64,000 bases of DNA from Escherichia coli (GTDB taxonomy: Bacteria > Pseudomonadota > Gammaproteobacteria > Enterobacterales > Enterobacteriaceae). The stretch is from NCBI RefSeq assembly GCF_050920415.1, contig NZ_CP169309.1, one strand, 5' to 3'. The position numbers and the translations under genes were made by a program. Under the pieces are notes generated by a model. The model made no database searches. It was not told the DNA's origin and saw nothing but the letters and a program-made list of their open reading frames with translations. Positions 3,206 to 63,094 of this stretch are shown piece after piece. Position 1 is the stretch's first letter; each line of letters starts with the position of its first letter.

Positions 3206-3403
3206 ATGAACAAGGATTTAGAATTGACCGTGGAGGATTTAAGCACGATTGCGGAATACATGCGCGGCGATGATCCTGATAAACCTGTCACTGTTGACAT
3301 GAAATATTTAAAAGGCGCTTACATGACAAGCTCGCGGCTAATTTCTTTGCAGGCGATTATGTATGCGCGGGCGCAATGGAAAAATAGCAACGGTGTATTA
3401 TGA
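3206..3403 (+). CDS. Hypothetical small phage protein (65 aa)
   Basis: Strong Shine-Dalgarno AAGGAGG 6 nt upstream of the ATG at 3206; stop overlaps the NinB-like start. Confidence 0.45.
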   Translation: MNKDLELTVEDLSTIAEYMRGDDPDKPVTVDMKYLKGAYMTSSRLISLQAIMYARAQWKNSNGVL

Positions 3404-3831
3404 GGCAAATTAGATTTGAAGTAGTTAATGACGCCGTGAAAGAAAATGCTATCAGGCAGATAAGGGAAATACAGCCTGATAGCAAAAGCCCGCTGATAAT
3501 TACCATCCAGGAGAAAACCCGCTCACTAAGCCAAAATGCGTTGCTTTGGGCGCTGCTAACCGACATTAGCGATCAGGTTAATTGGTACGGCAAGAAGCTG
3601 TCTCCGGAAGACTGGAAAGCGGTATTCACTGCCGGACTTAAGAAATATGGCGTCGTCCCTAACCTGGATAAATCCGGCTTCGTTGTATTGGGAACGTCTA
3701 CAAGCCGGATGAGCAAATCGGAATTCAGTGAACTAATCGAATTAATTTACTCGTTCGGTGCTGAACATAATGTCCAATGGTCGGGTGATACGAAATTAAA
3801 TGAGGAATTCATAAAACGCTGGGGGCAATAA
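3400..3831 (+). CDS. NinB-like recombination protein (lambda Orf/NinB family)
   Basis: 143 aa; pattern IQEKTRSLSQNALLWALLTDISDQVNWYGKKLSPEDWKAVFTAGL resembles lambda NinB as recalled from memory. Confidence 0.7.
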   Translation: MRQIRFEVVNDAVKENAIRQIREIQPDSKSPLIITIQEKTRSLSQNALLWALLTDISDQVNWYGKKLSPEDWKAVFTAGLKKYGVVPNLDKSGFVVLGTSTSRMSKSEFSELIELIYSFGAEHNVQWSGDTKLNEEFIKRWGQ

Positions 3832-4007
3832 TGGCGCGTTATTATATGGCTAAACCTACCGGAATTTTGTATAAGGTTGATGGCGAATACGTTTTTTATT
3901 TTCACAACCAGGCGCGAGAGTGGCGATTGTGTCACGCGCACTTTCAGCACGAAATAGAAAACCACCCTGAATATTTTATTAAGGTTGACAATGTAACGGT
4001 GGCGTAA
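3831..4007 (+). CDS. Hypothetical small phage protein (58 aa)
   Basis: ATG overlaps the NinB-like stop by 1 nt (TAATG); translation MARYYMAKPTGILYKVDGEYVFYFHNQAREWRLCHAHFQHEIENHPEYFIKVDNVTVA; below the ORF-track length cut-off. Confidence 0.35.
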   Translation: MARYYMAKPTGILYKVDGEYVFYFHNQAREWRLCHAHFQHEIENHPEYFIKVDNVTVA

Positions 4008-27048: not shown

Positions 27049-27363
27049 TTAACCTTTGACCTTCGGCATTGCGATGTCTTTCAGGCCGCCAGCGTTCTCA
27101 ACGTGGGTATATCCCATCTCGCTAAGGATCTCTTTTGCCTGCCCTGACTGGCGTCCGGCATTGCAATACACTTTCACGGTGTCGTTTTTATCCGGAACGG
27201 CGGTGGCAATGCGCTCTTTCACTTCCTTCAGGGGAATATTGATGGCTCCCTGAACGTGCTCTTGCTGATACTGCTCTGGAACACGAACATCGATCCAGTG
27301 TTCAGCGGCGAAAACGGGCAGTGAAAACACCAGTGTCAGAGCAAGTAAGCCTTTTTTAAACAT
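27049..27363 (-). CDS. pspE: Thiosulfate sulfurtransferase (rhodanese) PspE
   Basis: 104 aa; signal peptide plus rhodanese motif VKVYCNAGRQSGQA. Confidence 0.9.
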   Translation of the reverse strand: MFKKGLLALTLVFSLPVFAAEHWIDVRVPEQYQQEHVQGAINIPLKEVKERIATAVPDKNDTVKVYCNAGRQSGQAKEILSEMGYTHVENAGGLKDIAMPKVKG

Positions 27364-41460: not shown

Positions 41461-42422
41461 TTATCTTCACCTTACGCCGCATTTTGTTATTGATTGTCAC
41501 CTTGTTCCTGCTGACGTTCGTTGGCTTTAGCTTGAGCTATTTCACCCCACATGCGCCGTTACAAGGCGCGTCACTGTGGAATGCCTGGGTGTTCTGGTTT
41601 AACGGCCTGATCCACTGGGATTTTGGTGTTTCCAGCATTAACGGTCAACCGATTGCCGAACAGTTAAAAGAGGTCTTCCCGGCGACGATGGAACTGTGCA
41701 TCCTCGCCTTCGGTTTTGCGCTGATTGCTGGCATCCCCGTAGGAATGATTGCCGGGATTACGCGCCATAAGTGGCAGGATAACTTGATCAACGCCATCGC
41801 CTTACTGGGCTTTTCAATCCCGGTGTTCTGGCTGGCGCTTCTGTTGACGCTGTTTTGTTCACTCACGCTAGGTTGGTTGCCCGTTTCAGGGCGTTTCGAT
41901 CTGCTCTACGAAGTGAAACCGATTACCGGTTTTGCGTTGATTGATGCCTGGCTTTCGGACTCACCGTGGCGGGATGAAATGATCATTAGCGCAATCCGTC
42001 ATATGGTATTGCCCGTGATCACCCTGTCGGTTGCGCCAACAACTGAAGTGATCCGACTAATGCGTATCAGCACTATCGAAGTGTATGACCAGAATTATGT
42101 AAAAGCGGCGGCGACCCGCGGTTTGTCACGCTTTACTATTTTGCGTCGCCACGTTCTGCATAACGCGTTACCTCCGGTTATTCCTCGCCTGGGCTTACAG
42201 TTTTCCACCATGCTGACGCTGGCAATGATCACCGAAATGGTCTTTAGCTGGCCGGGTTTAGGGCGCTGGTTAATTAACGCCATCCGCCAGCAAGATTACG
42301 CGGCCATTTCCGCCGGAGTGATGGTGTGTGGCTCACTGGTCATTATTGTTAACGTGATTTCTGATATTTTGGGTGCCATGGCTAACCCTCTGAAACATAA
42401 GGAATGGTATGCCTTACGATAG
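41457..42422 (+). CDS. sapB: ABC permease SapB
   Basis: 321 aa; 4-nt overlap with sapA. Confidence 0.9.
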
Positions 42423-43299
42423 CGTATACAGCGAAAAGCGCCCGCCGGGCACGCTGCGTACCGCCTGGCGCAAATTTTATAGTGATGCCTCTGCGATGGT
42501 CGGTCTGTACGGCTGCGCGGGACTGGCTGTACTGTGTATTTTTGGCGGCTGGTTTGCGCCTTACGGCATCGATCAGCAATTTCTCGGCTATCAATTATTG
42601 CCGCCTTCATGGTCACGCTATGGCGAAGTTTCTTTCTTCCTGGGGACTGACGACCTCGGACGCGATGTTTTAAGTCGTTTACTGAGTGGAGCTGCACCAA
42701 CCGTGGGGGGGGCATTTGTGGTGACGCTTGCAGCGACAATCTGTGGCCTGGTACTTGGCACCTTTGCCGGGTCGACGCACGGTCTACGCTCAGCAGTACT
42801 AAACCATATTCTGGATACCTTACTGGCGATCCCTTCTCTGCTGCTGGCAATTATCGTTGTAGCGTTTGCCGGACCGAGTTTGTCGCACGCCATGTTTGCC
42901 GTCTGGCTGGCGCTGCTGCCTCGTATGGTACGTTCGATTTACAGCATGGTGCATGACGAACTGGAAAAAGAGTACGTTATCGCCGCCCGTCTGGATGGCG
43001 CATCAACGCTGAATATTCTCTGGTTTGCTGTGATGCCAAACATCACCGCCGGGCTGGTCACCGAGATCACCCGCGCACTTTCGATGGCAATTCTCGATAT
43101 CGCCGCGCTGGGCTTTCTCGATCTCGGCGCACAACTCCCCTCGCCTGAATGGGGAGCGATGCTCGGTGATGCGCTGGAACTGATTTATGTCGCCCCGTGG
43201 ACTGTCATGCTGCCAGGTGCGGCAATTATGATTAGCGTGCTGTTGGTTAACCTCCTTGGCGACGGTGTTCGTCGTGCAATTATTGCGGGGGTGGAATAA
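42409..43299 (+). CDS. sapC: ABC permease SapC
   Basis: 296 aa; overlaps sapB. Confidence 0.9.
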
Positions 43300-44291
43300 T
43301 GCCATTACTCGATATTCGTAACCTGACCATTGAATTTAAAACCGGTGATGAGTGGGTTAAAGCCGTCGACCGCGTAAGTATGACCTTAACCGAAGGTGAA
43401 ATCCGCGGTCTTGTTGGCGAATCCGGTTCCGGCAAAAGTTTGATTGCAAAAGCAATTTGTGGGGTGAATAAAGATAACTGGCGTGTTACTGCTGACCGTA
43501 TGCGTTTTGATGATATCGATTTGCTGCGTCTCTCCGCACGCGAACGGCGCAAGCTGGTTGGTCACAACGTGTCGATGATTTTCCAGGAACCGCAGTCGTG
43601 TCTTGACCCGTCAGAACGTGTGGGTCGCCAGTTGATGCAAAACATCCCAGCCTGGACCTATAAAGGCCGTTGGTGGCAGCGTTTTGGTTGGCGCAAACGT
43701 CGCGCTATTGAACTGTTGCACCGCGTGGGGATTAAAGATCACAAAGATGCGATGCGCAGTTTTCCCTATGAGTTGACAGAAGGTGAATGTCAGAAAGTGA
43801 TGATAGCCATTGCACTGGCGAATCAACCGCGTCTGCTGATTGCTGACGAACCGACCAACTCAATGGAGCCAACAACCCAGGCGCAAATTTTTCGCCTGTT
43901 GACGCGTCTCAACCAGAACAGCAATACCACTATTTTGCTTATCAGCCATGACTTACAAATGCTTAGCCAATGGGCGGATAAAATTAACGTGCTTTACTGC
44001 GGTCAAACGGTGGAAACCGCGCCAAGTAAGGAGTTGGTGACAATGCCACATCATCCTTATACCCAGGCGCTGATCCGCGCGATACCAGACTTCGGCAGCG
44101 CGATGCCGCATAAAAGTCGCCTCAATACGCTGCCCGGCGCTATCCCACTGCTGGAACAGTTACCGATTGGGTGTCGTCTGGGGCCGCGTTGCCCGTATGC
44201 ACAACGAGAATGCATTGTGACGCCACGTTTGACGGGGGCGAAAAATCATCTCTATGCCTGTCACTTCCCGCTGAACATGGAGAAAGAGTGA
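43299..44291 (+). CDS. sapD: ABC ATPase SapD
   Basis: 330 aa; Walker A GESGSGKS. Confidence 0.9.
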
Positions 44292-45169: not shown

Positions 45170-45532
45170 ATGGATAAAATAAAAGCAAATGCCCGCGATT
45201 TAAGACGCAACCTCACCCCGCAGGAGCGAAAGTTCTGGCGATATCTTCGCAGCCGACGTTTTGCTGATTTCAAATTTCGCCGTCAACATCCGGTGGGGAA
45301 TTACATTCTCGATTTTGCCTGTTGCTCTGCACGTTTAGCGGTAGAGCTTGATGGTGGGCAACATGATTCAGCTATCGCGTATGATACCAGGCGCACGCGC
45401 TGGCTTGAGTCCCAGGGCTGGACCGTGCTGCGTTTCTGGAATAACGAGATCGATCATAATGAAGAGGCGGTTCTGGGGGAGATTCTGCAGGAACTGAGCC
45501 GCCGGTCACCCTCACCCCAACCCTCTCCCTGA
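45170..45532 (+). CDS. ycjD: DUF559-family (endonuclease-like) protein
   Basis: 120-aa ORF; MDKIKANARDLRRNLTPQERKFWRYLRSRRF...; the 3' end runs into a repeat region. Confidence 0.7.
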   Translation: MDKIKANARDLRRNLTPQERKFWRYLRSRRFADFKFRRQHPVGNYILDFACCSARLAVELDGGQHDSAIAYDTRRTRWLESQGWTVLRFWNNEIDHNEEAVLGEILQELSRRSPSPQPSP

Positions 45533-58418: not shown

Positions 58419-61094
58419 TTACTTCAACATATTACGAATGACATAATGCAAAATGCCGTCGTTCTGGTAGTAAGTCAACTCCGTCGCGGTGTCGATACGA
58501 CAACAGCAGGGTACGACTTCCTGGCTACCATCCGCGCGCGTAAACGTCACCGGAACCGTCGCACCGGGTTGTAGACTTTGCAGATCGACAATATCAATCT
58601 TCTCTTCCCCGATTAGCCCTAACGTTTTACGCGTCACGCCTAGCGGAAATTCCAGCGGCAGGATGCCCATGCCAATTAAATTCGAACGGTGAATTCGTTC
58701 AAACGATTCGGCAATCACAACACGAATACCAAGCAGACGCGGACCTTTTGCTGCCCAGTCACGGCTGGAGCCTGATCCATACTCTTTCCCGGCAATCACC
58801 GCCAGCGGCGTTTGCTCCTGCTTATAGCGCATCGCGGCATCATAAATAGAGACGACATCACTGTCAGGTAGATGCCGCGTCATCCCCCCTTCAACGCCAG
58901 GCACCATTTCATTACGAATGCGAATATTGGCGAAGGTGCCGCGCATCATCACTTCATGGTTACCACGCCGCGAACCGTAGGAGTTAAAGTCTTTGCGCTC
59001 AACACCCCGACCTTGTAGATATCGCCCCGCCGGGCTATCGGGCTTAATGCTGCCCGCCGGAGAAATGTGGTCAGTGGTAACCGAATCCCCCAGCATTGCG
59101 AGGATCCGCGCACCGTGAATATCTTCCACAGGTGCTGGTGTTGCCTGCATTTCATCAAAGAAAGGCGATAAGCGAATATAGGTTGAATCCTCCTGCCAAC
59201 CGTAGGTATCGGATCGCGCAACGTTAATCTCTTTCCATTCCGCCGTGCCTTCAAAAACTTCTGCGTACTCTTTGCGGAACATTTCTGTGGAGACTTGTTC
59301 TACCGCACGGGCAATTTCTTGTGCCGATGGCCAGATATCTTTCAGATATACCGGATCGCCTTTACGATCGTGACCAATAGGCTCAGAAGTGAGGTTAATA
59401 TTCATATTTCCCGCCAGCGCATAGGCAACCACCAGCGGCGGCGAGGCCAGCCAGTTAGTTTTAACCAGCGGATGGATACGGCCTTCAAAGTTACGGTTGC
59501 CGGACAGCACCGCACCGACGGTTAAATCGCCTTTTTTGATTGCCGTTTCGATAGGATCGGGCAATGGACCAGAGTTACCAATACAGGTGGTACAACCGTA
59601 TCCCACAAGGTTAAATCCCAGTTCATCCAGATACGGTGTCAGTTTCGCTTTTGCCAGATAATCAGAAACGACTTTCGAGCCTGGTGCCAGCGACGCTTTG
59701 ACCCACGGTTGCCGCTTGAGGCCCAGAGTTACAGCTTTTTTCGCCAGCAAACCTGCGGCCATCAGCACACTTGGGTTAGAGGTGTTGGTGCACGACGTTA
59801 TCGCAGCAATGACCACCGCGCCATCAGGTAACTGATACTGATGTCCGTTCATAACATAATCGACCGGCTGGCGATCTTTATGCGTGGCATTTACTTCCAG
59901 TTCGTTACTGGCGGCAAATGCTTTTGGTACATCGGGCAGTGCAACGCGATCCTGTGGGCGTTTTGGCCCTGCCAGGCTCGCTTCAACGTCATTCATATCC
60001 AGTTCTAACGTACTGGTAAAAATCGGTTCATCGCCCGGGTTACGCCACATGCCCTGCGCTTTGGCATATTTTTCGACCAACTCGACCTGATCTTCGCTGC
60101 GCCCGCTTAAACGCATGTAATCGAGGGTGACAGCATCGATTGGGAAGAAGCCACAGGTGGCACCATATTCTGGCGACATATTGGCAATGGTGGCGCGATC
60201 CGCCAGCGGTAGTGAATCCAGCCCATCACCATAAAATTCGACGAATTTCCCCACCACGCCATGTTTGCGCAGCATTTGGGTAACGGTGAGAACCAGGTCT
60301 GTGGCGGTAATACCTTCACGTAATTTTCCGGTGAGTTTAAAGCCCACTACGTCCGGGATAAGCATGGAAACCGGCTGGCCTAACATTGCGGCTTCGGCTT
60401 CGATCCCACCAACGCCCCACCCCAGCACGCCAAGGCCGTTGATCATGGTGGTGTGCGAGTCAGTACCAACGAGTGTATCCGGATAAGCAATCCATTCACC
60501 GTCCTGCAATTCGCTCCACACTGCTTTGCCGAGATATTCGAGGTTAACCTGATGGCAAATGCCTGTGCCTGGCGGCACGACGCTAAAACGACTGAACGCC
60601 TGCTTTCCCCATTTCAGGAACACATAACGTTCGTGGTTGCGCTCCATTTCCAGGCGCACGTTTTCTTCAAATGCCTCATCATCACCAAAACGATCGACGG
60701 TCACCGAGTGGTCAATGACCAGGTCGACCGGTGAGAGCGGGTTAACCTTTGCAGTATCGCCGCCGAGGCGTTTAACCGCTTCGCGCATTGCCGCCAGATC
60801 AACAACGGCAGGTACGCCGGTAAAGTCCTGCATCAGCACCCTTGCCGGGCGGTAGGCAATTTCACGGTCAGCATGGGCATTTTTCAGCCATCCCACCAGC
60901 GCGTAGATATCCTCTTCGGTAACCGAGTTACCATCCTGCCAGCGCAGCAGGTTTTCGAGCAAAACTTTGAGTGACTTAGGCAGACGGGTGATATCGCCCA
61001 GTGATTTGGCAGCAAGCGGCAGGCTGTAGTAGTGGTAAGTTTTATCTTTGGCCTGCAACGTGTCCTTACTGGCTTCTCGTAGGGTTGACGACAT
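58419..61094 (-). CDS. acnA: Aconitate hydratase A
   Basis: 891 aa; [34 protein letters not shown]... Confidence 0.95.
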
Positions 61095-61466
61095 AGCTCC
61101 TCCTTAATGACAGGGTTGCGAAGCCCTGATTCTCTTCAGGGTGAATATTAAAGATAACACAAACATTGCGTAACGATTTGATAACAACCCAAATTGATAA
61201 AAGAGGAGAAACCTTGTGGCAAAGCAAATGAAAACCCCGCCGCAGCGGGGTCAGGGATCAGTGAGTAATGATCCAGAGGAGTTCGGCCCAGAAGAGCATC
61301 GACAGAGAAAATGCGCCCATCCAGGACCAATATTTCATATTTGTGTTGATCATAGGCTACACCCTTAACGGTTATTACTTTGTGTTGAGATAACTCAACC
61401 TGTTATTGCTGCGGTGTATTAAAAGCCCTTTAATTCATTAAAAATGGGTAATAAGAATGATGATAA

Positions 61467-61634
61467 TTATTGTTTCGGCTGATCATCTTCAGCAAACAGT
61501 TCTATAAAGGCTTGCTGCTGCGTTGTTAGTTGCCAGTCGTCTGGAATAACGACGGAACATTCCCGTTTCGTTACTGGTTCATTGTCACTATGCTGACATA
61601 ATTGTGACGACTCCAGTTGCTCCTGACCGACCAT
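61467..61634 (-). CDS. yciX: Small protein YciX
   Basis: MVGQEQLESSQLCQHSDNEPVTKRECSVVIPDDWQLTT...; 55 aa from the internal ATG of ORF 61467-61655. Confidence 0.6.
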   Translation of the reverse strand: MVGQEQLESSQLCQHSDNEPVTKRECSVVIPDDWQLTTQQQAFIELFAEDDQPKQ

Positions 61635-61636
61635 AG

Positions 61637-61765
61637 TTATCCCCACACTTTCCAAATCAGCAGTGCGACAACCCCCCAGAAAAGTGCAGAACCAAGAAAT
61701 ACCGCTAGCCAGGCTTTGCGTTTTAATTCAGGGTCCCGGCGGGGTTCCTGATTTCCAGAAGGCAT
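61637..61765 (-). CDS. ymiA: Small membrane protein YmiA
   Basis: Manually translated as MPSGNQEPRRDPELKRKAWLAVFLGSALFWGVVALLIWKVWG (42 aa); sits immediately upstream of yciX. Confidence 0.55.
   Translation of the reverse strand: MPSGNQEPRRDPELKRKAWLAVFLGSALFWGVVALLIWKVWG

Positions 61766-62095: not shown

Positions 62096-63094
<999 letters not shown>

Follow-up and report, generated by a model that had tools for sequence, protein, structure and literature searches.

Does the DNA between acnA and yciX encode a second small protein, on the strand opposite to its neighbors? The stretch analyzed here, which we call the window, comprises 64,000 nucleotides of an Escherichia coli genome, and the gene order at its end is that of the topA-cysB-ymiA-yciX-acnA region, with all genes on the minus strand. 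A reading of the sequence alone had drawn attention to a Shine-Dalgarno (SD)-like motif on the + strand, AAGAGGAG (61201-61208), followed by a 50-codon open reading frame (61216-61368) that opens with a GTG at 61216, has an in-frame ATG at 61228, and closes with a stop codon at 61366-61368. It placed this ORF in the acnA promoter region and offered two interpretations, an unannotated small protein or a coincidental motif in acnA regulatory DNA. The motif, both start codons, the stop and the hydrophilic 50-residue product (MAKQMKTPPQRGQGSVSNDPEEFGPEEHRQRKCAHPGPIFHICVDHRLHP) were all found as described. The duplex between AAGAGGAG and the 3′ end of 16S rRNA is strong (-9.1 kcal/mol) and the GTG lies 7 nt from the motif, so that by spacing and by duplex energy this codon has a ribosome-binding site. 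The ATG, which shares the frame of the GTG, has no SD of its own (duplex -1.5 kcal/mol). As set out below, the + ORF is very probably a non-functional shadow ORF, a chance frame lying opposite ymiC and its terminator, and we infer that its product is not expressed.

A frame in register with ymiC

The minus strand at these coordinates is already annotated and partly characterized, as ymiC, STnc180 and the acnA upstream region. With acnA (aconitate hydratase A; 58419-61094, minus strand) as its downstream neighbor and yciX (61467-61634, minus strand) upstream in the ymiA-yciX-ymiC operon (PMC11429745), ymiC (61258-61353, minus strand) encodes a small membrane protein of 31 amino acids (MINTNMKYWSWMGAFSLSMLFWAELLWIITH; RefSeq WP_001310756.1; K-12 b4741). 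It is preceded by a ribosome-binding site, AAGGGTG (61360-61366, minus strand), located 6 nt 5′ of its ATG, with a duplex energy of -5.9 kcal/mol. The position between yciX and acnA is that of b4741 in K-12 (1335572-1335667), and in the listed records the RefSeq annotation beneath the interval reads "small membrane protein YmiC". Profile scores for YmiC are above the curated cut-offs in both NCBIfam (NF041484, 66.3 bits vs 42) and Pfam (PF23694, 87.5 vs 27). The protein was confirmed by chromosomal epitope tagging after an earlier appearance in tetracycline ribosome profiling (PMC6001520), and it is membrane-localized; its induction at low Mg2+, as a member of the ymiA-yciX-ymiC operon, depends on PhoQP (PMC11429745).

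STnc180 (Rfam RF02079; 61224-61426, minus strand) corresponds to the 3′ part of the ymiA-yciX-ymiC transcript, the part that carries ymiC; cmscan matched it over model positions 1-208 of 208 with 202.7 bits against a gathering score of 50 (E = 1.8e-44). In Salmonella, STnc180 is considered a processed mRNA species of 500-2000 nt (Sittka et al. 2008, PMC2515195). A terminator scan located the intrinsic terminator hairpin of ymiC/STnc180 at 61233-61252 on the minus strand, with its U tract at 61224-61232; its fold is stable (-16.4 kcal/mol, z = -2.45) and the stem pairs are recovered in the Rfam match. A transcript 3′ end that lies fewer than 200 nt past ymiC has been labelled ymiC-acnA, and on the basis of that end ymiC was listed as a candidate upstream ORF for acnA (Adams et al., PMC7815308). 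All model cut-offs are thus passed on the minus strand across 61224-61426, and the neighborhood is that of K-12; the + ORF lies on the opposite strand and has the DNA of this locus in common, not its function.

The overlap is extensive. Of the 153 nt in the + ORF, 96 are antisense to ymiC and 20 fall on the ymiC terminator hairpin, and the TAA that ends the ORF (61366-61368) overlaps the ymiC ribosome-binding site. The codon boundaries of the two frames occupy the same position modulo 3, and the + ORF is accordingly made of ymiC codons reversed, one for one: its codons 15-46 are the reverse complement of ymiC, codon by codon, and its codons 6-13 span the ymiC/STnc180 terminator hairpin. The hairpin also folds in + strand RNA, where it begins 17 nt past the GTG; the + strand fold is ordinary (z = -1.34).

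This exact register accounts both for the openness of the frame and for the hydrophilic composition of the product. The frame stays open within ymiC because YmiC uses no TTA, CTA or TCA codons. None of its 4 leucines and 3 serines is encoded by these triplets, an outcome with a chance of about 0.26 given the codon usage of the window's long ORFs. The product owes its hydrophilic character to the middle bases of membrane-peptide codons, which are rich in U and are read as A on the opposite strand. T is the commonest middle base in YmiC codons (13 of 31) and A the commonest in the + ORF (19 of 50), and the two products have mean Kyte-Doolittle hydropathies (GRAVY) of +0.61 (YmiC) and -1.2 (+ ORF).

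Placement of the ORF in the acnA promoter region therefore needs to be divided. It holds for the SD-like motif and does not simply hold for the ORF, which is mostly antisense to ymiC and its terminator. The suggestion of a coincidental motif in acnA regulatory DNA is likewise apt for the motif, while the identity of the ORF body as the reverse complement of ymiC and its terminator had been overlooked.

Conservation of the two strands

We compared the interval with related genomes. A contig scan gave 11 loci, of which nine were usable: three from non-coli Escherichia, three from Citrobacter amalonaticus, and one each from C. sedlakii, Lelliottia nimipressuralis and Salmonella enterica subsp. 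arizonae; none came from Klebsiella, Enterobacter or S. enterica proper. The YmiC ORF is intact in all nine loci, spanning Escherichia, Citrobacter, Salmonella and Lelliottia. Of the nine loci, eight have in-frame stops in the + frame; these premature stops affect each of the three sister Escherichia lineages and five of the six other enterobacterial loci, and the ninth locus has an unrelated upstream start region. The reading frame of the + ORF is thus not conserved in relatives. The three Escherichia stops, in E1V33, in the "E. coli" strain SCPM-O-B-8794 and in MOD1-EC7003 (MOD1), result from the ymiC codon changes CTC>CTA, TCT>TCA and TCC>TCA, each of which is silent in YmiC.

Substitution patterns show the same asymmetry. 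Variable columns are distributed over ymiC codon positions 1:2:3 as 12:7:21. Measured against the window, the ymiC frame has pN/pS values of 0.18-0.27. For the antisense frame, eight of the nine comparisons give values of 1.2-5.1, the exception being MOD1 (0.17); these figures come from a short region in which the two frames are not independent. Purifying selection on the + ORF, in the sense of pN/pS below 1, was not found in this comparison. The terminator carries a signal of another kind. Its stem reads CCCCGC/GCGGGG in E. coli and CCTCGC/GCGAGG in other Escherichia and Citrobacter lineages, a compensatory change from C-G to T-A which points to RNA-level selection across the + ORF codons that span it.

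Two database records deserve comment on their own account. SCPM-O-B-8794 (NZ_JAATUR010000011.1), labelled Escherichia coli, is 88.9% identical to the window over 61000-61700 and is more distant from it than Escherichia sp. E1V33; it is probably a non-coli Escherichia lineage. A 454-nt contig assigned to Terrisporobacter mayombei, a member of the Firmicutes (NZ_JAHZMP010000227.1), shares 97.6% identity with the ymiC region of E. coli and almost certainly represents E. coli contamination of that assembly.

Within E. coli, the 61095-61470 interval was found in 5,421 of 5,426 complete genomes, and the YmiC protein is identical in every allele examined. Across five E. coli alleles, the 28 overlapping codons analyzed contain four SNPs, all silent for YmiC and all amino-acid-changing in the + ORF. 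A fifth SNP converts the ymiC stop from TGA to TAA and replaces Ser with Leu in the + ORF. The allele shared by the window and K-12, in which the + ORF runs for 50 codons from the GTG, is present in about 4,190 of the 5,421 genomes (~75%). Another, found in at least 90 of them, has a +1 insertion of C in the hairpin stem that cuts the + ORF to 17 aa. A cryptic-clade stop allele, also looked for, is not present in the complete E. coli genome set. Taken together with the broken frame in eight of nine related loci, a frameshift allele carried by this many genomes speaks against the proposal of an unannotated small protein.

A third allele, with a deletion of 14 nt (61229-61242), occurs in about 1,150-1,230 of the 5,421 genomes (21-23%). 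It removes the ATG and shifts the frame of the GTG, and the version in Combat2C1 has in addition a GTG>GAG change. We considered this deletion as a clean disruption of the frame and rejected it as such, since a TTG at 61214, overlapping the GTG, comes into frame and keeps 46 codons open downstream of the same SD. The N-terminal residues of the + ORF consequently differ between the two major E. coli alleles. With start codons beside the SD in two of the three frames, a frameshifting indel will be "rescued" about one time in two, and we read the TTG rescue as coincidence, though it does weaken the within-species argument.

The 376-base ymiC region of strain 2013C-4282 is identical to that of the window. 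In the same strain, sapC (42411-43300, approximately 42409-43298 in the window) is annotated as a frameshifted pseudogene. Upstream, its coordinates are offset from those of the window by about 2 nt, and small indels must therefore separate the two sequences elsewhere.

Origin of the SD-like motif and rival explanations

If the body of the ORF is accounted for by ymiC and its terminator, what of the strong SD-like motif? The acnA 5′ leader and promoter region (61095-61213, minus strand) form a block that is near-invariant across genera. In the alignment of Escherichia, Citrobacter, Salmonella and Lelliottia it extends from the acnA start codon to ...TTGATAACAACCCAAATTGATAAAAGAGGAGAAACC. AAGAGGAG is the distal edge of this block, and conservation ends just short of the proposed start codon. 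The adjoining spacer, 61214-61232, which holds both the GTG and the ATG, is variable in length as well as sequence, and its indels do not come in multiples of three. The motif itself is kept in the Escherichia clades, Citrobacter and Salmonella arizonae, even at loci whose downstream frame is interrupted or not the same. It is present in Escherichia sp. E1V33, where the ORF ends after three codons, and in C. sedlakii, where it is followed by a 65-codon ORF in another frame that encodes an unrelated peptide. Retention of the motif where no matching ORF follows suggests that its conservation reflects acnA regulation, and not a + strand ribosome-binding site.

The acnA block is of some interest in itself. 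Its sequence (…ATTAAAGATAACACAAACA…GTAACGnTTTGATAACAACCCAAATTGATAAAAGAGGAGAAACC) hardly varies between Escherichia, Citrobacter and Salmonella, and it contains repeated TTGATAA/GATAAC motifs that resemble putative regulator-binding sites. The promoters of acnA reportedly lie about 50 bp (P2) and about 407 bp (P1) upstream of the gene.

The likelihood of encountering such an ORF by chance was estimated from the window. Opposite its long ORFs, the antisense frame that is in register with the sense codons is stop-free in 29% of 50-codon windows and 44% of 32-codon windows. The other two antisense frames are stop-free in 18% and 13% of 50-codon windows, which makes the in-register frame the one most often open. 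We then collected every ORF that had 46 or more codons and an SD duplex no weaker than -8 kcal/mol and that lay outside open frames of 150 codons or more. Eight ORFs in 64 kb pass: the real genes pspB and pspC, the present ORF, and five that are unannotated (3206-3403, 3831-4007 and 27056-27253 on the + strand; 45372-45515 and 62185-62343 on the minus strand). Two of the five are located within or opposite mppA, and one each within or opposite pspE, a DUF559 pseudogene and cysB. One of the mppA-antisense ORFs (3206-3403) has 65 codons and a perfect SD, TAAGGAGG, whose duplex energy (-12.6 kcal/mol) is better than that of the present ORF. The combination of SD and open frame at 61201-61368 is no more than chance gives. 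A strong SD, a start codon and 50 open codons can evidently arise without a gene opposite a small gene, a terminator and a conserved promoter block, and such combinations should be interpreted with caution.

The + ORF matches no family in NCBIfam or Pfam. None of four start and allele variants of its product has an exact match in a 15-billion-protein collection, in which YmiC is found on at least 1000 contigs. A consensus scan, which may miss weak or alternative promoters, predicted no sigma-70-like promoter upstream on the + strand. No + strand terminator was found, the U tract adjoining the hairpin on the minus strand only, and no Rfam family matched on that strand. In a Ribo-seq screen of O157:H7 Sakai that covered intergenic ORFs of at least 30 aa and reported 465 as translated, YmiC is listed (XECs183) and the + ORF is absent. 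The preprint text of Weaver et al. 2019 mentions neither ymiC nor acnA, and the PIRT-Seq and TRAINSPOTTER supplements contain no coordinates within 13355xx-13357xx.

These observations can be set against other explanations. A young small protein, restricted to E. coli and antisense to ymiC, might be translated from a weak antisense transcript through the SD and the GTG, or the TTG in the deletion allele, and be too recent for wider conservation. The strength of the SD (-9.1 kcal/mol) and the good spacing of the GTG fit this proposal, as does a frame that is open from the GTG in ~75% and from the TTG in ~22% of E. coli genomes, and validated antisense small proteins are known in E. coli (Weaver et al. 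2019). Against it, each of the three sister Escherichia lineages has stops in the frame, a +1 frameshift is tolerated in at least 90 genomes, the N-terminus differs between the two major alleles, and all five E. coli SNPs across ymiC and its stop codon alter + ORF amino acids. Expression would have to proceed with no predicted + strand promoter and past a stable hairpin that begins 17 nt beyond the GTG, and the product is missing from the Sakai screen that detected YmiC and was called by no gene caller in the 15-billion-protein collection. We regard this possibility as very unlikely. Slightly less probable again is low-level translation in E. coli proper of a hydrophilic peptide of 46-50 aa, as a very young proto-gene opposite ymiC whose ribosome-binding site is shared with the acnA promoter block. 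Were the + ORF translated after all, it would add one more lineage-restricted antisense micro-protein, of modest interest. Least probable is a non-coding + strand antisense RNA that pairs with the ymiC 3′ end and terminator or with the long acnA leader, the ORF and SD being incidental. Two regulated units meet at this site, the PhoQP-induced ymiA-yciX-ymiC operon and acnA, and antisense transcription is described as widespread in E. coli in literature cited by Weaver et al. 2019. Such an RNA would nonetheless have neither a promoter-like site upstream nor a terminator on its own strand, where the U tract is lacking, and it would belong to no Rfam family and have a fold that is not unusual (z = -1.34).

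The validated antisense small proteins YoaM, YqgG, YqhJ and YibX offer an instructive comparison. Like the + ORF, they are encoded by ORFs of 50 codons or fewer that lie antisense to an annotated gene and have a start codon and an SD. They were, however, found through start-site peaks in ribosome profiling and confirmed by tagging or fusions; in the case of the + ORF, the comparative evidence speaks against a conserved product.

A shadow ORF provides the closer parallel. Shadow ORFs are open stretches opposite a genuine gene, and they arise most often in the antisense frame whose codons are in register with it. The + ORF has this register with ymiC; it is open only for as long as ymiC is free of TTA, CTA and TCA codons, and synonymous changes in ymiC introduce stops into it. 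The present example departs from the usual case in running 42 nt past ymiC, through the terminator, to a start beside a strong SD-like motif, and it is this extension that made it resemble a gene. As a shadow ORF it would have been assembled from three unrelated, constrained elements of the minus strand. Reversal of ymiC would supply codons 15-46 and the ymiC/STnc180 terminator hairpin codons 6-13, and the edge of the acnA block would supply the apparent Shine-Dalgarno, with a GTG/TTG pair that chances to sit 5-7 nt beyond it. The presumed targets of selection would then be YmiC, the terminator stem and the acnA regulatory block, and not the 50-aa product. The overlap with ymiC, the shared register, the asymmetric conservation and the rate of such ORFs by chance are all direct observations.

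Loss of the ymiC terminator in a common allele

The most interesting by-product of the analysis concerns the minus strand of the 14-nt deletion allele. The deletion is derived (it is visible at positions 434/435 of locus L003) and is carried by Combat2C1 and a Nissle 1917 derivative, among others. On the minus strand, it deprives the ymiC terminator of half of its loop, the whole of its 3′ arm and most of its U tract, and the deletion allele yielded no terminator prediction. With this terminator lost, the PhoQP-induced ymiA-yciX-ymiC transcript would be predicted to read through into acnA, and the distribution of the allele predicts that such read-through may occur in about a fifth of E. coli genomes.

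Variation in the same interval was also seen outside Escherichia. In C. amalonaticus AUH_CA_2023_1, an insertion of about 165 nt with a palindromic, GC-rich and REP-like segment separates the conserved terminator-like hairpin from the ymiC stop codon (approximately 1130-1290 of locus L009). In C. sedlakii, the insertion between the corresponding hairpin and the ymiC stop is about 60 nt long (approximately 2400-2450 of locus L015).
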